Source of the DNA: a virus | Lineage: Duplodnaviria; Heunggongvirae; Uroviricota; Caudoviricetes | Virus record (IMG/VR): IMGVR_UViG_2711768056_000002 | Location: 1-9,465 of that record | Reading direction: 5' to 3' (one strand) | Length of the DNA: 9,465 nucleotides | Program-made: the position numbers and the translations under genes | Notes under the pieces: model-generated | Told to the model about the DNA's origin: nothing | What the model saw: only the letters and a program-made list of their open reading frames with translations | Databases searched by the model: none | Shown here: one piece after another, positions 1-9,465 of the stretch | Layout: every line of letters begins with the position of its first letter | How positions within the stretch are numbered: position 1 is the first letter of the stretch

Positions 1-15
1 ATTCAGGGGGCCAGT

Positions 16-591
16 CTACTCACGAATGAGTCTCAATGGTATTCCAGCATAAGATGATGATGGTCTTGATAGTTTTTTACCAACTAATGACTTAGTGCCA
101 ATAATACACCCATATGGTATTACAGAACCTTTGTTTATTGTGACACCTTCACCAACCCACACATGGTCTGAGATAACAATATCTTTTGCGTGATTTATCC
201 TCTCTCCACTTTCAATATCAATAATAGGATGTTCATCTGAAGTTCTAATATAAATAGAACTAGAGAACATGCAATCGTCACCAATTGTAATTGATTTACC
301 TTCCATTGCGAAGAAATGCACACCAGCGGTGGTCGTCCCGCTTCCAATAATTAACTTTGAACTGTTTTGCCGAATATCAATACAGCCTCTTATATTGCTC
401 TTTTTTTTAATATGCAAGGTATTATTCTCACCAATGATGTTTATTCTTAAATTTCTAAGAACTACACCTTCATCTATTGTAATTTTATGCCCGCTACCCT
501 GCACATTAACTTTAACACTTTTGTCAATGAGTACTGATGGATGTATATATATTTCATTACCACTTTCAAATTCACTGAATATATTTTCCAT
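16..591 (-). CDS. Hexapeptide-repeat (left-handed beta-helix) sugar O-acetyltransferase, LacA/Maa/NeuO-like; candidate lysogenic-conversion enzyme
   Basis: 191-codon ORF with ATG at 591..589 on the minus strand; stop codon included at 18..16. Translation shows tandem [LIV]-G-x-x-x-x hexapeptide units (IGDDCMF, HVWVGEGVTINKGSVIPYGCIIGTKSLVG) and a C-terminal ...SSYAGIPLRLIRE that resembles the conserved C-terminus of galactoside/maltose O-acetyltransferases. No obvious hydrophobic transmembrane stretch. AT-rich like the adjacent tailspike gene and on the same strand, about 100 nt downstream of it. Confidence 0.75.
   Translation of the reverse strand: MENIFSEFESGNEIYIHPSVLIDKSVKVNVQGSGHKITIDEGVVLRNLRINIIGENNTLHIKKKSNIRGCIDIRQNSSKLIIGSGTTTAGVHFFAMEGKSITIGDDCMFSSSIYIRTSDEHPIIDIESGERINHAKDIVISDHVWVGEGVTINKGSVIPYGCIIGTKSLVGKKLSRPSSSYAGIPLRLIRE
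401..408 (-). repeat. A8 homopolymer tract (T8 on the plus strand) inside the acetyltransferase coding sequence, at codons HIKKKS
   Basis: Plus-strand positions 401-408 read tttttttt, flanked by c and aa. On the coding strand this is cat att aaa aaa aag agc. Confidence 0.9.
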
Positions 592-691
592 AAAAATATT
601 ATCCGCATTACATAAACAGTCATACCAATCGATACAATCTATCTCTGGTAGTATAAACGACCTTCCAATTCCATGGAAGATCCATTACACG

Positions 692-2497
692 TTATAGGTT
701 TTCGAGTTTGTTCAATCTTTGCTCTAACCCCTCTATCCTTGAAAATGCAACATCTATAGCCTTTGTAACAAACGGTATAACCTGTTCGTAGGCAATTGTT
801 TTTACATCGCATCCATTGTTTACTAGATGATCTTGATATATACCACAGTCAATTCCAAGTCGATCAAGTAATTCTTTAACTTGCTGTGCAAGATACCCGG
901 CATGTTCTCTTTTCCTTTTTCTACTGCCATCTTTTTCATGTTGATGAATTCTAGTTTCAAAAATCGGATTGCCATTAGAATCATCACCAATTTTTACATT
1001 GTATTCTTCTATATAATCATCACGAAAATCCCACTTATAAAAATATGGGATTATTCCACGGACGAATGATACAGCAAGTTCTCCGTCTATTATTCGTTTA
1101 TCTGCTTTATCACGCTCATCAGACCGAGTTTGCACCGTACCATATACATAAACTGTCTGAGAAGAATTTCCTAACTGAATCTCATGATCTCCACCAACTC
1201 TGGCACGGTAGCCTAAAGCTACACAATTTAATTTCTCTTTTGCAGGTGTCCCATCAATCAAAAACCTACCAGCTTGATGTCCAAGATATACTAATTGGGT
1301 TCCAGTAGTCTCACTATCTCCTGACGCTGCACCAACAAAAACATTATCACTTCCTGTTGTTAAATTAAAGCCGGAAGCCCTACCAATAAGAACTGAATCG
1401 TTCATTTTTGTTGCTTTATATCCTGCTTGCATCCCACAAAAAACAACACCATTTAATCCATTCTGTGACCATGCAGCTTGATACCCTATAGCAACAATAT
1501 TATTGGGAGATTCCCCATATGAAGACAAACCAAGAGAAGCCTCACGTCCTAGTGCAACGTTTCCAGAACCATCCACATTTCTAAATAAGGCAGAGCGACC
1601 TGCAGCAAGATTATTACCGCCAGTTCCCGTCTCAGCACCAGAGAATGCTCCTATATAGGTATTACCACCACCAGTTGAGTTATTTTGCATTGCTGCTTGA
1701 CCGACAGCAACGTTATCTCTTCCTGTTGTTGTTTGTGACCCAGCATCCGTACCAACTGAAACATTTCTCTCTCCTGATGTTAATAGTTTGCCAGCGTTAT
1801 AACCAACCACTACATTATAACTGCCGGTTTTATAGTTGGCATAAGAAGAACTTTGAGCGTAAATAAAAATATTATAACTACCTGTAGTTAACAGTGCTCC
1901 AGCCTCATGTCCAAGTAGAACATTGCGCTGTCCTGTTGTAAGGCTTGCACCGGCTCGTCTACCAATACCAGTATTTTCCGCACCAACAGCCTCATCTGAC
2001 TCGTTACCTATAATTGATGATCCTGCTCCAACTCCGAAAAAAGCATTATTTTTCGCATATTCATTAGAAGAAAATGCATCAATTCCCCATACCGTATTAC
2101 TTGGGTCAGCATAACCAGGCGAATTTTCACCAGAAAAATTGGTTAATTCCTGCCTTAACTGATCTGGAGCATATTTCATTACATTTGGGAAATAGTGCTG
2201 CTGAGAGCCATACGCATCAAAAATCGCCATTGAGTGATTTTTTATAGTCGCAAACTTACCGAATTGACCATTCAATACAGGTTGTCCAGCTTGACTTATT
2301 TTTATTGGTTGAGAAACCTTAATATATTTTCCATTCTCATTCTCAAAATAAACATCCACTTGATTATCTGGATTAGTCGGATCGGTATCAGGCTTCCCGA
2401 TATAAATGCTTCCATTCGATACTGATTTAAATGTTCTTGACATTGTGAACAATTGATTAGGCATGGAAACTATAATGTTAGGTATAATGTCTGTCAT
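692..2497 (-). CDS. Tailspike / tail fibre protein with P22-type N-terminal head-binding domain, glycine-rich repeat shaft and C-terminal intramolecular chaperone (peptidase S74-like) domain
   Basis: 601-codon ORF, ATG at 2497..2495 preceded by GGAG about 10 nt upstream on the minus strand; stop TAA at 694..692. The N-terminal ~110 aa (MTDIIPNIIVSMPNQLFTMSRTFKSVSNGSIYIGKPDTDPTNPDNQVDVYFENENG...HSMAIFDAYGSQQHYFPNV) closely resemble the P22 tailspike head-binding domain as I recall it. The middle carries degenerate N-[VI]-x-[VIL]-G-x-x-A-G-x-x-x-T-T-G repeats. The C-terminal ~143 aa begin SDERDK and end ...RIEGLEQRLNKLENL, matching the self-cleaving chaperone domains of endosialidase and T5 pb1-type fibres. 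Confidence 0.9.
   Translation of the reverse strand: MTDIIPNIIVSMPNQLFTMSRTFKSVSNGSIYIGKPDTDPTNPDNQVDVYFENENGKYIKVSQPIKISQAGQPVLNGQFGKFATIKNHSMAIFDAYGSQQHYFPNVMKYAPDQLRQELTNFSGENSPGYADPSNTVWGIDAFSSNEYAKNNAFFGVGAGSSIIGNESDEAVGAENTGIGRRAGASLTTGQRNVLLGHEAGALLTTGSYNIFIYAQSSSYANYKTGSYNVVVGYNAGKLLTSGERNVSVGTDAGSQTTTGRDNVAVGQAAMQNNSTGGGNTYIGAFSGAETGTGGNNLAAGRSALFRNVDGSGNVALGREASLGLSSYGESPNNIVAIGYQAAWSQNGLNGVVFCGMQAGYKATKMNDSVLIGRASGFNLTTGSDNVFVGAASGDSETTGTQLVYLGHQAGRFLIDGTPAKEKLNCVALGYRARVGGDHEIQLGNSSQTVYVYGTVQTRSDERDKADKRIIDGELAVSFVRGIIPYFYKWDFRDDYIEEYNVKIGDDSNGNPIFETRIHQHEKDGSRKRKREHAGYLAQQVKELLDRLGIDCGIYQDHLVNNGCDVKTIAYEQVIPFVTKAIDVAFSRIEGLEQRLNKLENL
695..1123 (-). other. Tailspike C-terminal intramolecular chaperone / autoproteolytic domain (peptidase S74-like); predicted self-cleavage immediately before Ser459
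   Basis: Residues 459-601. Ser459 is encoded by the minus-strand codon at 1123..1121, verified as revcomp aga = tct, followed by D-E-R-D-K. The S-D-x-R-x-K start and the helical, Leu-rich C-terminus are characteristic of this domain family. The call is from recalled motifs, not a profile search. Confidence 0.6.
2168..2497 (-). other. Tailspike N-terminal head-binding (particle-attachment) domain, P22 type
   Basis: Residues 1 to about 110 of the tailspike ORF; estimated ~60% identity by eye to the P22 tailspike N-terminus recalled from memory. The domain boundary is approximate. Confidence 0.75.
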
Positions 2498-2661
2498 TTA
2501 ATTTGCTCCAGACGTAGCAATGCCGAACAAGATGCAACTTGCCCTGCATTGCACTAATGTCAGTTATGATTTGTTAATTATGAGATGAGTCTATGCAAAG
2601 AGATCTGTTGAATATTGCGCTCTATATATTTGGTTTTTGCACGTTCCTGGTGTTTGCGAAG
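2498..2661 (-). promoter_or_regulatory. 164-bp spacer between the gp16-like and tailspike genes; contains the tailspike ribosome-binding site and possibly a promoter or attenuating hairpin
   Basis: This is the only non-coding gap longer than 100 bp inside the structural block. GGAG lies upstream of the tailspike ATG. A 7-bp inverted repeat, gcaatgc at 2517-2523 and gcattgc at 2546-2552, flanks a 22-nt spacer. I could not identify a convincing sigma70 -35/-10 pair by eye. Confidence 0.3.
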
Positions 2662-4659
2662 CTATTCTGACAACGCATCAGACTTAGCCCCCTGCGTCAG
2701 AGCGTTAATTGCCTTTTGTGCCTGCTGCATTGCTTTCTCAAAGGCTGTTGATCCGCGTGGGGTATTTGCCATTCGGAGCATTGCATTTCTGAATGGTTCT
2801 CTCTCATAGGCGCGAGTAAGAAGTCCGTAGCTTACTGCTGCGCCAGTTGTCGCCGGGTTCATTGCCGTCCCATACCCGATAATGAACGGGATGGTTTGCT
2901 GCCCTGTTGGTGTTGTTACTGCCGCTTTTGCTGCCTGCTGAGTGGACTGAAGGTAATTTTTCAATCCTTTCAGATAAGCAGCGTCCTGCCCCTTAAATGT
3001 GATGCCAGTCTGGCTTTGCAGGATGTTAAGCTGTCGAAGGAACTGGTCAGGGGATCCACCTGATTTCTCCATCGCCTTTCCAATGATGCCATTGCGCATT
3101 TGCGCCCTGCCAACACGACCAACTGAGTTATACAGCGTCTTAATTTCCGATTTGTTCTTGCTGAATAGCATGTTGTTGACAACTTCCGGCGTCAGATCGC
3201 CTTTCATGAGAACATTCTTCAGCCTGGTATTCTTTAGTTTCGCGGCTTCGTCAGCGTAGACGGCATTGGCCTGCTGATATTTACGGAGAGTATCGTTGCC
3301 AAGATTCTGACCAATGGCACCATTGATATCGTCGGTCATTGCCTTGTAAACGCGCTGAATTGCAGCATCGGAACGGTTTGGTAACACTGGTCGCTCACCC
3401 TTCACGTCCATTCTGAACTGGCTGCGCAGATCGCTTAATTGCTTCAAATCCAGATTTACCGGACCATCAGGACCAGCATTGCGAACAAGCTCATCACGAT
3501 AGGACTGAAGTTTTGAAATAGTCTCGTTATCAGCAACCTTACCAAGCTTCTGCAGGTTAGATATTTCTGTATCAATCTGCTGAATTGCTCTTGCAGGCTG
3601 AATGTTTATTCCCGCCATAGCATTCTGAACCTGCTCCAGTCGATTTCCTGCAGCGCGACGAATTCCTGATGTTTTCGCTTTAAGGCTGTCAATAACAACC
3701 GCTGGATCATACTCACCGAATTTATCAGCAAATCTCTGAACCAACTGGCTTCTCGCTTCCTGTTGCGTTGCTCTCATTCCGCTTGTGCCCGCCAGGGGGA
3801 TATTTTCTGCTGTCGTTTGCGCCATTTTTCCGACGCGGGAAGTAGGCTGTAACAGGTCTGTGGTGTGCAGAGGCACTCCTTCACGCTCTGCAAATCTGAT
3901 AGCTTGCTGCGCTTCTGGCGCAATAGCACCACGAACTCCACGATAAGCAGCACCTAATCCACGTCCGGCAGCGTTAATAGCACCGCCAGCCAGCACACCA
4001 ACGCCCAAATCGGTGGCGAGTGCTTCCGCATCATCTTTCGCACTATTTGCAGCAAGTGATCCAACTGCGTTTTCTGCTAGAAGGCGAGTTGCCCCATGAG
4101 CAATTCGACCAGCAAGTGTTGGTGCCTGTGCTGCCGCTCTCTCAACGCCAGCAGGAGTGAGGTAAGGCAATGCTTCAGCAAATACCCTTCCCTCTGTCGT
4201 TTGTGGAGTCAGCGCGCCTTGCTGAAGGCCAAAGTCCTGCTCTAATCCCTGCGTTGTTACACGTGGCGCTGGTTGATATGTACCATCGCCAATGCCGAGT
4301 TTACCGCCAGCCCAAGCCGCCGCGCTTGTTACAGCATCGGCAACTGATGCAGGTATGTTTGCCACGTTCACGCCAGCCTGCACCAGTCCGCGACCAGTCT
4401 CTTTTACTGCTTCGCCAAGATCAGACATAAATCCACTTTGCTGTGGTTGTTGCTGTGCTACTGGTTGCTGTGTCTCCACTTGCTGCACATATGGCAATGG
4501 ATAGGCAGCATAGAAAGCTTGCTTAGCCTGCTCTGCATTTTCTCCGGCTTGCGGGGCAACGACTTCATTGAAGTATTGCTCCTGAGCCTGCGCTTTTTGT
4601 TCTGGTGCTAACGCCTGATACTGTGGAGAGGCGATAACATCTTTCCATGCTTTAGCCAT
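2662..4659 (-). CDS. Ejection (E) protein, P22 gp16-like
   Basis: 665-codon ORF, ATG at 4659..4657 overlapping the stop of the upstream gene (minus strand reads TAATG), with a GGGGTGA ribosome-binding site. The N-terminus MAKAWKDVIASPQYQALAPEQKAQAQEQYF... matches my recollection of P22 gp16. It sits in the gp16 position, last of the three E proteins before the tailspike. Confidence 0.85.
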   Translation of the reverse strand: MAKAWKDVIASPQYQALAPEQKAQAQEQYFNEVVAPQAGENAEQAKQAFYAAYPLPYVQQVETQQPVAQQQPQQSGFMSDLGEAVKETGRGLVQAGVNVANIPASVADAVTSAAAWAGGKLGIGDGTYQPAPRVTTQGLEQDFGLQQGALTPQTTEGRVFAEALPYLTPAGVERAAAQAPTLAGRIAHGATRLLAENAVGSLAANSAKDDAEALATDLGVGVLAGGAINAAGRGLGAAYRGVRGAIAPEAQQAIRFAEREGVPLHTTDLLQPTSRVGKMAQTTAENIPLAGTSGMRATQQEARSQLVQRFADKFGEYDPAVVIDSLKAKTSGIRRAAGNRLEQVQNAMAGINIQPARAIQQIDTEISNLQKLGKVADNETISKLQSYRDELVRNAGPDGPVNLDLKQLSDLRSQFRMDVKGERPVLPNRSDAAIQRVYKAMTDDINGAIGQNLGNDTLRKYQQANAVYADEAAKLKNTRLKNVLMKGDLTPEVVNNMLFSKNKSEIKTLYNSVGRVGRAQMRNGIIGKAMEKSGGSPDQFLRQLNILQSQTGITFKGQDAAYLKGLKNYLQSTQQAAKAAVTTPTGQQTIPFIIGYGTAMNPATTGAAVSYGLLTRAYEREPFRNAMLRMANTPRGSTAFEKAMQQAQKAINALTQGAKSDALSE

Positions 4660-5954
4660 TAATCACCCCATAGTGAAGAAAAGTTACTGCCAGTAGTAGA
4701 TTGTTGCCCTGGCGTATTCTGTACTGGCTCCTGATAATCAAACTGTTTTTTAACAGTGCTCAACTTGCTTTCAAGCTGATTTCGAATCTTTCCGATAGAG
4801 TCACGAAAAGCCTTTTCACTCATTTTGGGACTTAGAGCACCAACCGCATCAGATAATTTTTTACCCTCAGCATCTGAAAGAGCCCCCATCCCCTTCAGGG
4901 ACTGCACCATAGGGAGGAAAGTTTGAGCTTTAAAGGTGTCGAGTCTTGCTTCAAAGTTAGCCGCATCAGAGCCAGGAACTGTCGGAAACGCTGAGCGAAT
5001 TCCTACTGCTTTTGAAAGGCCGGGGCTTTGCTCTATCTCGTTGAGAGAATCAAGCGCGGTGCTGAACGTATCAACTGCACCCTGAGCGGCGGCCTGCCTG
5101 TCAGCGCGGGCTATGTCAGCCTTTTGCCGAACATCTGCCTGTTTCTGTTTTAGCTCTTCGAGCTTTAACTGATTGCTTTCTCTGGCTATCTGTCTGTCCA
5201 GAGCCTTTTCTTGTAATTCTGCTCTTTGTATTTCTCGGGAAAGAGCAGCATTCTGTGCGCTGATGTTCTGTCCACGTATCTGGATGTCCTGACCTCGAGC
5301 TGTTAGTGCTTCTCCTGCCTGATTGCTGCGGATTGTCTCTGCCAGCCTGTCTCGGTCAATCTCACGACCAGCCATCTTGTCCTGAACATTGAAGTAATCA
5401 ATCGGACCAAGCGCAGCCATCCCAAGGTGATCAACAAACTCACCAAATCCTGAAGGATTCTGCTGATACATCTGAGCAACGTTGTTAGGGTCAACACCGA
5501 CGCGATTCAGTTCCTTGGCGTTGTTTTGCAGCCATGATTGCATTGCTTCTGGAGACGAGGCAGCAAGGCGTGCGCCAGCCGCTAAGGTGCCGATAGAATT
5601 GCGCTGGTCTTCATCAATGAACCCCATGCCTTTACGAATAGATTCAATCTGGTCTGGATATTGAGTAGCCAACTGACGCAAAGCTCCGCGATCACCAGAC
5701 GCATAAGCATTAGCGTATGCCTGCTGAAATTCTTTCTGCCGCTGAGCCTGCTTTTCCTGATGAAAAACACCCGCAATACCTGAAAGACCTTGCAAAGCAG
5801 TCAGCCCAACATTGTTAGCACCTGAACGCTCAATATCATTGTTCTGCCTGATAAGCTGAAGCGTATTGCCGATGTCATTTACGTTCGGAGCGTTTGAGTT
5901 GACACCACCGATACCAGCCAACAATCCGCCATTTGTTCCTTGCCAAGTAGCCAT
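4659..5954 (-). CDS. Ejection (E) protein, P22 gp20-like
   Basis: 431-codon ORF, ATG at 5954..5952 preceded by AAGGGG on the minus strand; stop TAA at 4661..4659. N-terminus MATWQGTNGGLLAGIGGVNSNAPNVND...; central Gln/Arg/Glu-rich predicted coiled coil. Position between the gp7-like and gp16-like genes. Confidence 0.8.
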   Translation of the reverse strand: MATWQGTNGGLLAGIGGVNSNAPNVNDIGNTLQLIRQNNDIERSGANNVGLTALQGLSGIAGVFHQEKQAQRQKEFQQAYANAYASGDRGALRQLATQYPDQIESIRKGMGFIDEDQRNSIGTLAAGARLAASSPEAMQSWLQNNAKELNRVGVDPNNVAQMYQQNPSGFGEFVDHLGMAALGPIDYFNVQDKMAGREIDRDRLAETIRSNQAGEALTARGQDIQIRGQNISAQNAALSREIQRAELQEKALDRQIARESNQLKLEELKQKQADVRQKADIARADRQAAAQGAVDTFSTALDSLNEIEQSPGLSKAVGIRSAFPTVPGSDAANFEARLDTFKAQTFLPMVQSLKGMGALSDAEGKKLSDAVGALSPKMSEKAFRDSIGKIRNQLESKLSTVKKQFDYQEPVQNTPGQQSTTGSNFSSLWGD

Positions 5955-5963
5955 GATTACCCC

Positions 5964-6659
5964 TTAAAACAACGATCCAAGCAGGCCAAGTCCGCCGCCA
6001 ATTGCCGCACCTAATCCAGTGCCAAGTCCTGGAACAATAGAGCCAAGAGCAGCGCCAGTCATAGCCCCTGAAGCTCCGCCACTAATTGCTGTCTGAAGAC
6101 CTGATGGTTTATTGGCATTAGCAGCGGCAAGAGCCGCACTTTGCTGCGAAATCTGACTCATGTTGTTGGCATATGTCTGCCCGGCGTTTGCCTGACCTTG
6201 CAGTGCGCCAAGACCAATATTTGCCAGATTCTGGTAGTTGTTCATCTGACCAGACAGCCACTGCTGACCAAGCGTTGGTGCGATTGTTGCTAACTGATTA
6301 CCGGTTGCAGTGGAACCCAATCCACCTGTTGCTTCCGCTGCCGCCAGACTCTGATAGCGAGCCTGACCAGCAAGATCTTTGTACTGCTGAGAGTTGTAAT
6401 ACTGGTTAAGTGCCTGACCTTGCCCCTGAAGAGAGGAAAGATTCTGCAATTGTGATACGTACTGCTGAGCGAGTGGCGTGAACGGAGCAAGGTTTTTCAT
6501 GATCGTCTGCCACTGCTGATTCTGCAGGTCTGCGGCATACTTCTGAGCTTCTGCGGCATACTTTGCGCTTTTATCAGAACTGCCACCTTTCCCACCCTTT
6601 TCAGGGCAATAAGGTTCCTCGCCGCGCAGTTTTCTGCCCAGCTTAAATGCATATAACAT
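5964..6659 (-). CDS. Ejection (E) protein, P22 gp7-like
   Basis: 231-codon ORF, ATG at 6659..6657 preceded by GGGAG; stop TAA at 5966..5964. N-terminus MLYAFKLGRKLRGEEPYCPEKGGKGGSSDKS...; Gln/Asn-rich middle; Gly/Ala/Leu-rich hydrophobic C-terminus. Size close to the 229 aa I recall for P22 gp7. Confidence 0.8.
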   Translation of the reverse strand: MLYAFKLGRKLRGEEPYCPEKGGKGGSSDKSAKYAAEAQKYAADLQNQQWQTIMKNLAPFTPLAQQYVSQLQNLSSLQGQGQALNQYYNSQQYKDLAGQARYQSLAAAEATGGLGSTATGNQLATIAPTLGQQWLSGQMNNYQNLANIGLGALQGQANAGQTYANNMSQISQQSAALAAANANKPSGLQTAISGGASGAMTGAALGSIVPGLGTGLGAAIGGGLGLLGSLF

Positions 6660-6661
6660 GG

Positions 6662-7117
6662 CTATCTCCCGTGATTCAGGAAGTCGATTAGTTCTTCGCG
6701 TGTGGCGCTGTAAAACGTCACGTCATCCACGCCTTTGAAGTATTTTTTGATGGTTCCTACACGATTAAGGCCAATCATTGCGCAGTACATCTGACCGTGG
6801 CGGAATTTGCGTGCAGCGAACGATGTGACGCACTGAACGGTGGTGTTAGTCAGAATGTATCGCCAGAAAGCCAGCCCGATTTCCTTGCTGAATCCGCGAA
6901 TCTCTGGCAGGTACATGGCGTGGCAATCAAAGGTCAGCGGCTGAATCTCCTGATAGTAAACAATTCCGCCGAACTGCCCGTGCACGTTCACCTCAAAGTA
7001 ACGGCATTCAGGCTTGTAGTCGTATCCATCGCCGTTGTTGCTCCCGGCGATAATGTCAGGGTGATTTCCTACTGCTTCGATCAGGTCGATGTTTCGCGTT
7101 GGTTTGAAATGAATCAT
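6662..7117 (-). CDS. P22 gp14-like small late protein (function not well defined)
   Basis: ORF in the gp14 position between the needle and gp7 genes. I place the start at the ATG at 7117..7115, which overlaps the needle stop (minus strand reads TGATG). The ORF track extends one codon further, to a GTG at 7120..7118. Stop TAG at 6664..6662. Assigned mainly by synteny and size. Confidence 0.6.
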   Translation of the reverse strand: MIHFKPTRNIDLIEAVGNHPDIIAGSNNGDGYDYKPECRYFEVNVHGQFGGIVYYQEIQPLTFDCHAMYLPEIRGFSKEIGLAFWRYILTNTTVQCVTSFAARKFRHGQMYCAMIGLNRVGTIKKYFKGVDDVTFYSATREELIDFLNHGR

Positions 7118-8070
7118 CACTGCTCCGCGATTATCTTGATGGTTGTGGCAGTAAACGCCGCACCATTCGACTGAATGGTTAACGTGCTGCCATTTGTGGC
7201 AAGAAAGCCGTCTTTATCCACGCTGAAGAACGTAGCTAACAGGATGTTGTCGGTTGTTGTCGCCGCATTACGACTGCTGACCAACGTGTCAGGAACAGAG
7301 CCGGAAAAGGTTAGCTGCATTGACCTGTTGGCGGTTCCGCTGGGCCACGTCCCGACGATCGACAGCTTGAAGAACAGGGTTTTGTTCTCGTTGAACACAA
7401 CCATCTTGTTGTTAACGGTGTCGAAGAATGGTGCCAATGTGCCGGATGACGGCGTGAGCGTTTTCAGCAGGCTAACAAGGTTGGTCGGCGCTGTCGGGAT
7501 GGTTACAGATACTCCTGAGTAAACAACCTCTGATTTCTTGCGCGTGGTGGCATACTCAAGCGCAGATATTCTTGTTGAGTGATCACCAACTGTGCTTTGT
7601 AGCGTCGAAATACTTCCTTCTGCCGCTGTGAGCCTGGTATCAAGTGCGTCGATATCGGTTGTATTCTGAGTTATGCGCGCATCATGGTTTGCTAACTCAG
7701 ATTCATTGGCAGCAATTCGCGTATCGTGATCAGCCAGCTCTGTTTCAGCAGCCGTAATCCTTGTTTCATGATCTGCAAGAGTGCTTTCCGCTGCTGCAAT
7801 TCTATGTTCATGATTGATGAGAGTTGATTCAGCAGCTTCAATTCTGGATTCATGGTCTGCAAGGGTGACATCCTGCTCATCATTCTTCACCTGTGCATCA
7901 TAAGCCCCCTTCCCTGCTTCGTTGGCCTTGTTAGCCACGTTACCAACATCAGCACCCTGTGCAATAACGTACAGCAGATATGACTGCGAGAAGATATTAC
8001 GCGGAAGGACTGATGTGTCGAGCCGCGTAGCCTGGATGATTACCGGCTCATTGAGATTCGAATCAGCCAT
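7117..8070 (-). CDS. Tail needle (P22 gp26-like) with extended repeat coiled coil and a large C-terminal domain
   Basis: 317-codon ORF, ATG at 8070..8068 overlapping the stop of the gp10-like gene (TAATG); stop TGA at 7119..7117. The N-terminal ~68 aa ([68 protein letters not shown]) closely match the P22 gp26 N-terminus as I recall it. They are followed by heptad-pattern repeats and a ~150-aa Ser/Thr-rich C-terminal region. Confidence 0.9.
7654..7863 (-). repeat. Five tandem degenerate 42-bp repeats encoding 14-residue (double-heptad) units of the tail-needle coiled coil
   Basis: Protein units [14 protein letters not shown] / [14 protein letters not shown] / [14 protein letters not shown] / [14 protein letters not shown] / [14 protein letters not shown]. 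Matching DNA periodicity is visible on the plus strand, e.g. ...tcatg(a/g)tctgcaag(a/g)gt... recurring at about 42-bp spacing between 7680 and 7860. A further weaker unit extends to about 7612. Confidence 0.8.
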
Positions 8071-9464
8071 TACTCAATCCTTATCTGGCAGCCAGACAGA
8101 GTGACAGGTGACTTCGTGATAACGCGCAATTTGAAACCGACATTTTTCCTGATGCGCCCGACACGCTTCCACAAAACGCGTTTGTCGTAAACGAACGGTT
8201 CATTCTGCTCAATCATCTGCTCACGCCCGTAATTGATGCCGTCAGTGGTTGCAGAGAGAAAAAGGCGGTCAGCATACTGCGCAACGCCAGTTGACGACTC
8301 AACCTCAAGGTCGAACACTCTGGCGTTATCCGCTTTGAACAACGGAGTAAACAGCAGGTGTTCCTGTTGAAGACCATACTGACTGCTGATATCGAACTGC
8401 AATTTCCCGGTCACGGACTCCAGCTTATCGCCGCACGTTATCTGATTGCCTTCGTAAATGAAGTCGATAGCGCGGTACACATCGTCATACAAGCCTGTTT
8501 TCAGCACACACCATTGCGGACCATTGGCGCTTGAAGATGCGTCGTACACGAGGACGTGGCGCGGAAGGTGGATAATCAGCAACTCATGAGCATCAAACCG
8601 CAACGATTCCATCACGCCATCAGCCAGTTCATCAGCAGTGTAGGAACGAAGGATTTTCTCAATGCTCGCGCTGGCGATTGGTGATACCTGACCGGATCCG
8701 ATGATGTACACAGACGGCGCACCTGTTGCCGGATTGCTGATGAACGCATACGAATCAGCAAACGGCGTTTTGCAGTAGGTTCCGGCAATACCTTTCTGCA
8801 CCATCAGCGATGGCTGTGCGACATACAAAGCGGCACCAACGGTGGTTGCACCTGTCAGGGAAAAATATTCAATCGTCGATGAACCAAAGCAGACGATGAA
8901 GTCTCGCCATGTCCCGATACCGATGATGCCGTCCGGCTGCGATTCTGCGCGATATTGTGCGCTGTATCGGTCAGGATGCGATTCGTCTCCAAGGTCAGTG
9001 ATAAACCATGAATCCGTGCCGTCTTTTGACCACGCATAACGCCCACGTAAGCGCGTAATGTCACGAACCGAACCTAACTCATACTGCGTGAATCCGCTGT
9101 CTGTAGGCCAGTTTGAGACGGTTTTAACCGTGCCATCATAGCGATACTCGACCAGTTGACCATTAACGCCAACCGCCTGTGATGTTCGACCATGTGCCAT
9201 TGATACGCGACCACTTCCAGCAACATCACCCACTTCACTTTCACCCTTATACAGCTTGCCACCGCACACGCGATAAACAGCATTCTGCGCCATGTTGTAC
9301 TCGACGCCGCGAGATACACCGTTCACATCAGAACGTTTGGCAATGCCCGGGAATGAGCGAAGATATCCGCTGCTGTTAAGGATTTCTTTGGGTGTAGCCA
9401 GCATATTCACTGGCAGATAGTCGATATAGTCGGCGTTTCTAAAGTCTTTGCCGACACCTTTCAT
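8070..9464 (-). CDS. Tail hub / packaged-DNA stabilisation protein, P22 gp10-like; 5' end probably truncated by the window edge
   Basis: 464-codon ORF running to the last full codon of the window; stop TAA at 8072..8070. Translation from the in-window ATG at 9464..9462 begins [44 protein letters not shown]... and ends ...[17 protein letters not shown], matching my recollection of P22 gp10 throughout. P22 gp10 is slightly longer, so the true start is probably a few codons beyond position 9465. Confidence 0.88.
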
Positions 9465-9465
9465 A

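Follow-up and report, generated by a model that had tools for sequence, protein, structure and literature searches.

A stretch of 9,465 nt of viral DNA (Caudoviricetes; IMG/VR record IMGVR_UViG_2711768056_000002, positions 1 to 9,465), referred to below as the window, carries on its minus strand a gene in which a short coding motif recurs at a regular spacing. The question raised by this locus is how such an array arose, since the first-pass annotation regarded it as a recent tandem duplication that lengthens a phage tail needle, and whether changes in the number of units would adapt the needle to different hosts. The evidence presented here very probably identifies the segment as the central shaft of an HS1-type tail needle from a P22-like prophage, formed by an old array of 14-residue units that is subject to in-register unit change in relatives.

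The tail needle gene and its neighbourhood

The features discussed are listed in Table 1. Identification of the gene as an HS1/Sf6-type tail needle relies on several matches. The Pfam profile of the Sf6-type tail needle knob (PF16532) covers residues 136-317 with an E-value of 8.6e-108 (358 bits for a cut-off of 27), and phmmer comparison with the PDB indicated that residues 165-317 are ca. 99% identical to the knobs of HS1 (4k6b) and Sf6 (3rwn). In the same comparison, residues 1-118 matched P22 gp26 (2poh, E = 6.4e-43) and residues 1-79 were nearly identical to the HK620 needle (5bu5, domain E = 9.7e-40). At the DNA level, a prophage of Escherichia coli CM2 that adjoins torT matches the window with 99.9% identity over 9447 nt, and RefSeq names its needle product "tail needle knob protein". 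The lysozyme gene of this CM2 prophage is interrupted by an IS3 element.

Gene order is P22-like (gp10 - needle - DUF2824 - gp7 - gp20 - gp16-like - tailspike), and the CM2 and HS annotations concur in placing the needle gene after the gp10 hub and before the gp14/gp7/gp20/gp16 genes. The tail hub gene matches positions 6-469 of the 469 of its Pfam profile; its 5' end lies outside the window and its product has 472 aa in the CM2 annotation. Matches to PF25688 and PF16928 were found among the genes downstream of the needle, and the tailspike carries the P22 head-binding domain according to Pfam. Three short ORFs (7692-7883 on the minus strand, 7175-7522 and 7922-8104 on the plus strand) were dismissed as by-products of the needle frame, for which the homology support is overwhelming.

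Table 1. Position of the tail needle gene, its parts and its neighbours in the window
Feature	Position	Strand	Basis or extent
gp16-like ejection-protein gene	2662-4659		Pfam and CM2 annotation
gp20-like ejection-protein gene	4659-5954		Pfam and CM2 annotation
gp7-like ejection-protein gene, after the DUF2824 gene	5964-6659		Pfam and CM2 annotation
DUF2824 protein, downstream neighbour, in the position of P22 gene 14	6662..7117	(-)	Pfam PF11039, CM2 annotation
Tail needle gene, HS1/Sf6-type homologue of P22 gene 26	7117..8070	(-)	317 aa + stop; ORF, Pfam, PDB matches
C-terminal knob, Sf6/HS1 type, TNF-like jelly-roll fold	7120..7548	(-)	aa 175-317; PDB matches, AF2
Last three shaft heptads, leading to the knob	7549..7611	(-)	aa 154-174; heptad phase table
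Unit 5, degenerate sixth unit, heptad register kept	7612..7653	(-)	aa 140-153
Units 0-4, five well-conserved 42-nt (14-aa) double heptads	7654..7863	(-)	aa 70-139
NxxQD polar core layer (N63-D-E-Q66-D67), fixes the heptad register	7870..7884	(-)	read from sequence
N-terminal domain, common to P22 gp26	7891..8070	(-)	aa 1-60; phmmer
gp10-type tail hub ("packaged DNA stabilization protein"), upstream neighbour	8070..9465	(-)	PF11134, E = 2.6e-295

Periodicity, heptad register and fold of the shaft

The periodic segment (7612-7863) corresponds to exactly six times 42 nt and encodes residues 70-153 of the needle. Units 0-4 follow the pattern L(a)-x-[DN]-H(d)-[ED]-x-R-I(a)-x-x-[A/N](d)-x-x-x. Any two of units 0-3 agree at 8-10 of 14 aa and, at the nucleotide level, at 20-31 of 42 positions; unit 4 has 5-7 of 14 aa in common with units 0-3, and unit 5 has 3-6 of 14 aa in common with units 0-4; in DNA, the units are 48-74% identical to each other. 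The first-pass annotation had described at least five units with a "near-identical" consensus: the L-x-[DN]-H-[ED]-x-R-I part does hold for units 0-4 but, with 8-10 common residues even among units 0-3, the wording overstates their likeness. Beyond unit 5, the heptad pattern runs for about three heptads, up to L171.

The tandem-repeat search that the same annotation recommended came out blank, as Tandem Repeats Finder (TRF) reported no array at 7612-7863 in the window even with a minimum score of 30, and a second repeat search of the window (seed 6) did not recover the 42-nt family. Repeat finders are blind to this family because the units are too diverged. Periodicity was measured instead by autocorrelation against codon shuffles (n = 5000), which gave a DNA value of 0.562 at lag 42 versus 0.303 +/- 0.031 in the shuffles (z = 8.2, with 0 of 5000 shuffles as high) and of 0.536 at lag 84, the maximum over all in-frame lags in the shuffles being 0.488. 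At the protein level, autocorrelation reached 0.40 and 0.37 at lags 14 and 28 and 0.13 and 0.18 at lags 7 and 21, so that the period is a double heptad and not a single one. The 42-bp periodicity and the 14-residue units claimed from inspection of the sequence are both borne out by these values.

The heptad register is unbroken from residue 56 to residue 174. In the solved structure of P22 gp26 (2POH/3C9I), Ca2+ is bound by the NxxQD motif, whose N occupies a and whose Q occupies d (PMC13580157); with residue 70 taken as a, N63 of the window needle falls at a and Q66 at d, as in P22, and none of N63, Q66 and D67 varies among 32 homologues. Over residues 56-174, the a positions read A N L I L I L I L I L I I L I V I and the d positions A Q H A H A H A H N H N L A L H L, and the heptad phase table gives 94% hydrophobic residues at a and 0% at e. 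Within units 0-4, position a alternates between L and I, and position d alternates between H and either A or N. Position e is E or D, except for T in the last heptad, while g alternates between R and one of T, E or D; inter-helix g-e' salt bridges are possible given the acidic e positions and the alternating Arg at g. The stretch I133-T-Q-N136-T-T-D fits the Asn-at-d motif [ILV]-x-x-N-T-x-x and may be an ion-binding layer; this ion-binding motif of trimeric coiled coils was reportedly defined by Hartmann et al. in 2009. N122 likewise occupies a d position in this register. Asn-at-d layers are given as the subject of Hartmann et al. 2009 in PMC13580157.

An AlphaFold2 (AF2) model, run as a monomer with an alignment of the 32 homologues, displays a single helix over residues 42-175 (pLDDT 93-98 over residues 60-160) followed by beta strands over residues 179-316. 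The predicted helix of about 134 residues would measure roughly 200 Å at ca. 1.5 Å per residue, an estimate consistent with the 210 Å published for HS1 (PMC3741392). By analogy with the solved homologues, the shaft is expected to form a trimeric alpha-helical coiled coil. Pfam, the PDB matches and the AF2 helix all agree with the coiled-coil needle shaft proposed beforehand, as does the continuous register. Homology and the literature (PMC3741392, PMC9728967) suggest that the N-terminal domain would plug the tail hub and the portal channel. At the other end, where the match to the HS1 knob crystal construct (4k6b) begins at residue 165, the window protein has E181, K235, S283 and D285, which are described as L-glutamate-contact residues (PMC3741392) and are invariant in the 32 homologues. 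The S266-R267-N268 triad of the same report is also present, with N268 nearly invariant and the other two invariant in these homologues.

The closest characterised relative is the needle of HS1 from E. coli HS (EcHS_A0316 / ECHS_RS01575; knob PDB 4K6B), which has the same length of 317 aa and the same seven-unit order and is 96.8% identical (10 of 317 aa differ; ca. 99% identity in the knob). The two differ by point substitutions only, such as S82 vs A, D100 vs E, A107 vs D and A269 vs S, and the prophages that carry them have different backgrounds and different tailspikes. The HS1 needle has been described as having 16 heptads versus 11 in Sf6 and P22 (PMC3741392), within a range of 11-16 heptads and 220-320 Å for the needles of P22-like phages (Leavitt et al. 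2013, PMC3741392). Gp9 of Shigella phage Sf6 (282 aa; knob PDB 3RWN) has the N-terminal domain, the knob and the DHExRI double-heptad motif in common with the window needle; its shaft falls 35 aa (5 heptads) short of that of the window needle, a difference already in print (PMC3741392), lacking two double heptads and the ISTLQST heptad, which leaves a coiled-coil core of 68 aa compared with 103 aa in the window needle. The shafts have diverged, with ca. 79% identity over the whole protein.

In P22 gp26 (233 aa; PDB 2POH/3C9I) and in the needle of HK620 (5BU5), the N-terminal plug domain is homologous to that of the window needle, and both proteins carry the NxxQD Ca2+ layer as well as the first DHExRI units on a shaft that is a trimeric coiled coil. 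They differ in having two DHE units only, 11 heptads and a C-terminus made of a triple beta-helix and an inverted coiled coil in place of the knob. The 317 versus 233 aa comparison drawn earlier with P22 conflates a longer shaft with this different C-terminal domain, and the proper comparator is the 282-aa Sf6 gp9. An engineered elongated gp26 fibre (PDB 4LIN, 300 aa), man-made and P22-based, matches residues 1-146 and then residues 70-184 of the window needle; extra heptad blocks were inserted experimentally in its shaft, giving a longer and crystallisable fibre. The insert is said to be an 85-residue block rather than 14-residue units, in work by Bhardwaj et al. 2009 that reportedly also describes the needle family, its variable heptad number and shaft-length engineering.

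Age and origin of the array

The similarity between units was compared with that expected from random back-translation of the same peptides using the codon usage of the window. Mean nucleotide identity was 0.615 among units 0-3 versus 0.589 +/- 0.022 expected (P = 0.14) and 0.533 among units 0-5 versus 0.515 (P = 0.11), and identical residues were encoded by the same codon in 40 cases for 34.7 expected (P = 0.17), or in 26 cases for 19.3 expected when units 0-3 only are considered (P = 0.05, borderline). Homologues of the same 317-aa length in Klebsiella aerogenes, Serratia and others (ca. 76-82% identity) usually have their best match to each window unit in the unit of the same number, with a few off-diagonal ties, so that the seven-unit architecture is older than the divergence of these genera. 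Nucleotide and codon identities at the level of back-translation, together with a unit order mostly conserved across genera, indicate that the array is old. Its 42-nt DNA periodicity follows from the conserved peptide periodicity, with no recent event behind it, and the array does not qualify as a recently expanded minisatellite-like repeat, having no TRF call and a synonymous identity not above expectation.

A recent tandem duplication that made the array in the window gene, and hence lengthened the needle in this lineage, could account for the strong 42-nt periodicity and for the borderline codon excess in units 0-3, and recent duplications do exist in two relatives (L001 and L002, see below). 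Set against this are the lack of a TRF array in the window, a DNA identity between units of merely 48-74% that equals the back-translation expectation, and a seven-unit order that is also found in E. coli HS and, largely, in the ca. 76%-identical Klebsiella and Serratia homologues. This reading, which was that of the first-pass annotation, is effectively refuted by the TRF, unit orthology and back-translation results, and we regard it as having almost no chance of being correct. Most likely, the array arose long ago by tandem duplication of a 14-residue unit; synonymous sites are randomised and unit order is mostly kept across genera. From these sequences, duplication is not strictly distinguishable from convergence on a preferred 14-residue motif, because the DNA signal does not exceed the level imposed by the peptide. 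Convergence as the sole explanation, with the 14-residue period reflecting the structural demands of such a trimeric coiled coil (core layers alternating between L/I and H/A, g-e' salt bridges) and not the descent of units, would agree with this absence of additional DNA similarity and with the occurrence of DHExRI motifs in the P22 and HK620 needles, the shafts of which are otherwise different. It is nonetheless highly unlikely, since surface positions b, c and f are also conserved (A, D, S/T) without being required by a coiled coil, and since duplication of units is directly seen in relatives, so that the mechanism exists in this very gene.

Length variants in relatives and needle length

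The number of units does vary among related needles. Among the best 120 of 2510 homologues, lengths include 254, 268, 282, 289, 296, 303, 310, 317, 331, 338 and 345 aa. In the 54 sequences in which both anchor motifs could be located, the N-terminal 67 and the C-terminal 147 residues are each constant in all but a single sequence (a different start codon in one case, a truncated fragment in the other), and all length variation falls within the coiled-coil core, which measures 40, 54, 68, 75, 89, 103, 117 or 131 aa. Differences in length are mostly of 14 or 28 aa, and at least 14 distinct in-register events were distinguished among the homologues surveyed. Examples are given in Table 2; changes of +28, +56, -28, +14 and -14 aa also occur in the Sf6-type lineage (282 aa). 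Needles of 324 aa (P0006 and some ORF calls) were set apart, as they result from an upstream ATG start and not from a repeat change.

Table 2. Unit order in the window needle and in length variants
Length	Sequence	Unit order or change
317 aa	window	0-1-2-3-4-5-6
345 aa	P0001	0-1-0-1-2-3-4-5-6
331 aa	P0009	0-1-0-1-2-(3/4)-5-6
303 aa	P0010, P0011, P0040	one-unit deletions, three different: 3/4, 0/1, 1/2
289 aa	P0041, P0042, P0050	two-unit deletions, three different junctions
268 aa	P0061	LADH fused to STRISA, 7 heptads lost

Four loci document such events at the DNA level. L001 contains an 84-bp duplication whose copies are 100% identical (TRF period 84, score 360) and L002 contains three identical 84-bp copies. 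The deletion junctions sit on 7-8-nt stretches common to the joined units, as illustrated by L003, in which the shared stretch is GCGCGAAT, and by L004, in which it is AGAATTG. The 42-nt register would thus leave 7-8-nt in-register matches between units at which, as the junction sequences alone suggest, replication slippage or unequal recombination may occasionally delete or duplicate whole units in relatives. Each unit gained or lost would change the shaft by ca. 2 nm (14 aa) with the heptad phase unbroken. Repeat-number change, which the first-pass annotation ascribed to unequal recombination, does occur in relatives: the check on related needles that this annotation recommended uncovered needles of 254-345 aa that differ only in the core.

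Most variant sequences come from draft assemblies, and the length variants might be artefacts or debris, produced by short-read misassembly of repeats or by mutation in dead prophages. Most of them are indeed singleton clusters, short reads make it difficult to count exact tandem copies of 84 bp, the CM2 prophage has its IS3 insertion, and some variants are out of register (deletions of 18 and 5 aa and a duplication of 27 aa, all singletons), which could be decaying prophages or assembly errors. As a general explanation this is improbable, given that the units have diverged too far (no more than 74% identity) for an assembler to merge them, that 303-aa forms were found on 17 and 13 independent contigs from different samples with one in a closed genome, and that the virion genes beside the needle are intact in L001-L004.

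In-register unit change is nevertheless infrequent. The needle gene was matched in 923 of 5426 complete E. coli genomes, 164 of them with at least 80% cover; across these 5426 genomes, the unit 3/4 deletion junction (303 aa) was found in one and the unit 0/1 junction (303 aa) had no full match. Frequent copy-number variation in close relatives, by which a contingency or hypervariable locus is recognised, was not observed for these two junction types. In IMG/VR, all needles measured (n = 77) were of 317 or 282 aa, and scans with 303- and 289-aa queries returned only loci of these two lengths. E. coli harbours both forms, which are also carried by propagated phages: JEP4, Gally and 720R6 have needles of 317 aa, and Sf6, Kapi1, Louie and N7 needles of 282 aa. 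Needle length was further compared with tailspike type for these two main lengths. Tailspikes of 478-1281 aa from 45 different receptor-binding clusters accompany the 317-aa needle (64 IMG/VR loci), and in this sparse IMG/VR sample no tailspike cluster was common to 317- and 282-aa needles.

These data bear on the proposal that the array acts as an evolvable ruler, its length being selected to fit the thickness of the host envelope or capsule or the length of the tailspike. Many independent in-register gains and losses, a heptad phase kept in nearly all changes, the stable maintenance of both the 282- and 317-aa lengths in propagated phages, and the ability of shaft or tip changes to alter DNA-delivery kinetics (PMC3741392) all speak for it. 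However, 14-aa steps arise mechanically from recombination between 42-nt-periodic units, so that an unbroken phase is no sign of selection. Occurrence of the 317-aa needle with 45 tailspike types likewise leaves adaptive length tuning unsupported; in addition, intermediate lengths are rare, both main lengths are found within one host species, and P22 provided with the shaft and knob of Sf6 behaves like wild type (PMC3741392). Tuning to host penetration depth, as initially put forward, found no support in these comparisons and we consider it unlikely. A bolder version, in which the array is a built-in length-variation device generating by in-register slippage a pool of needles in ca. 2-nm steps, and in which length, perhaps with stacked His-at-d layers (pH- or metal-sensitive), sets needle release and the rate of DNA delivery for each host envelope, is speculative and appears quite improbable.

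The preferred reading thus remains that of an HS1-type needle shaft with an old 14-residue array. The feature is ordinary and carries little weight as a discovery, since the long needle of the HS1 type has been described before, as has the variation in heptad number within the gp26 family (Leavitt et al. 2013, PMC3741392). What is added here is that the DNA shows the repeat to be old, that in-register events at matches of 7-8 nt give rise to natural variants of 254-345 aa, and that these variants are rare, with needle length uncoupled from tailspike type. The natural series of shaft lengths could provide material to test needle length against DNA delivery, and could also serve protein-fibre engineering.

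Polar and histidine layers in the core of the needle shaft

The coiled-coil shaft of the 317-aa tail needle carries six histidine layers, since alternate d positions in its core are filled by His (see Table). In the 32-sequence alignment of needle homologues, H73 is invariant and conservation reaches at least 90% at both H129 and H164; H87, H101 and H115 are retained in nearly all of the homologues listed. No paper dealing with stacked His triads in a needle core was found in the literature searched; in the core of a trimer, such triads could be sensitive to pH or to metal.

Further polar core layers correspond to two Asn residues at d positions (N122 and N136), the second of which lies in the context I-T-Q-N-T-T-D, whose residues fit the ion-binding Asn-at-d motif. 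The NxxQD motif also forms a polar core layer; it is invariant in the same alignment and binds Ca2+ in gp26 of P22 (PMC13580157).

Table. Features of the tail needle and neighbouring genes in the window
Feature	Window position	Strand	Gene or context
H73 codon	7852-7854		needle; shaft d position
H87 codon	7810-7812		needle; shaft d position
H101 codon	7768-7770		needle; shaft d position
H115 codon	7726-7728		needle; shaft d position
H129 codon	7684-7686		needle; shaft d position
H164 codon	7579-7581		needle; shaft d position
NxxQD motif (N63-D-E-Q66-D67)	7870-7884		needle; polar core layer
N122	7705-7707		needle; Asn at shaft d position, polar core layer
N136	7663-7665		needle; Asn at shaft d position, polar core layer
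21-nt tandem repeat	6529-6570	minus	inside gp7-like gene (5964-6659)
gp16-position gene, 665 aa	2662-4659	minus	gp16-like, among the ejection-protein genes
Tailspike, 601 aa	692-2497	minus	P22 head-binding domain (Pfam)
Hexapeptide-repeat acyltransferase-like gene	16-591	minus	just downstream of tailspike

Length variation in related needles

Heptad phase is broken in three rare shaft variants, namely P0052 (285 aa, 18-aa deletion), P0051 (298 aa, 5-aa deletion) and P0055 (309 aa, 27-aa duplication), each a singleton from a short or draft contig. They may be non-functional alleles, artefacts of assembly, or stutters that the coiled coil tolerates.

Another short site of variable length occurs in the N-terminal region of relatives' needles and corresponds to window positions 7921-7938 (aa 45-50, V-A-N-K-A-N). 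Among the homologues P0086, P0087 and P0078, the NKA triplet is found with one or two extra copies (285 and 288 aa) and one relative displays a 16-aa duplication (298 aa).

Ejection proteins, tailspike and the CM2 prophage

The sole tandem repeat reported by TRF in the window (two 21-nt copies, 90% matches) duplicates one heptad of the gp7-like ejection protein and translates as SAKYAAE / AQKYAAD. The protein in the gp16 position had no match in the Pfam copy searched; it is named "lytic transglycosylase domain-containing" by RefSeq in E. coli CM2, and the gene at the corresponding position in L001, a relative with an exact 84-bp shaft duplication, matches PF26808 (Phage_P22_gp16).

The lysozyme gene rrrD of the CM2 prophage, to which the window is 99.9% identical, has been truncated by an IS3 element (L102, positions 1-1610, outside the window), so that this prophage may be defective despite its intact virion genes.

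Residues 459-548 of the tailspike match Peptidase_S74 (intramolecular chaperone of endosialidase) in Pfam, and the same tailspike is found in IMG/VR locus L037. The acyltransferase-like gene next to it is a candidate O-antigen-modifying gene, that is, one for lysogenic conversion.
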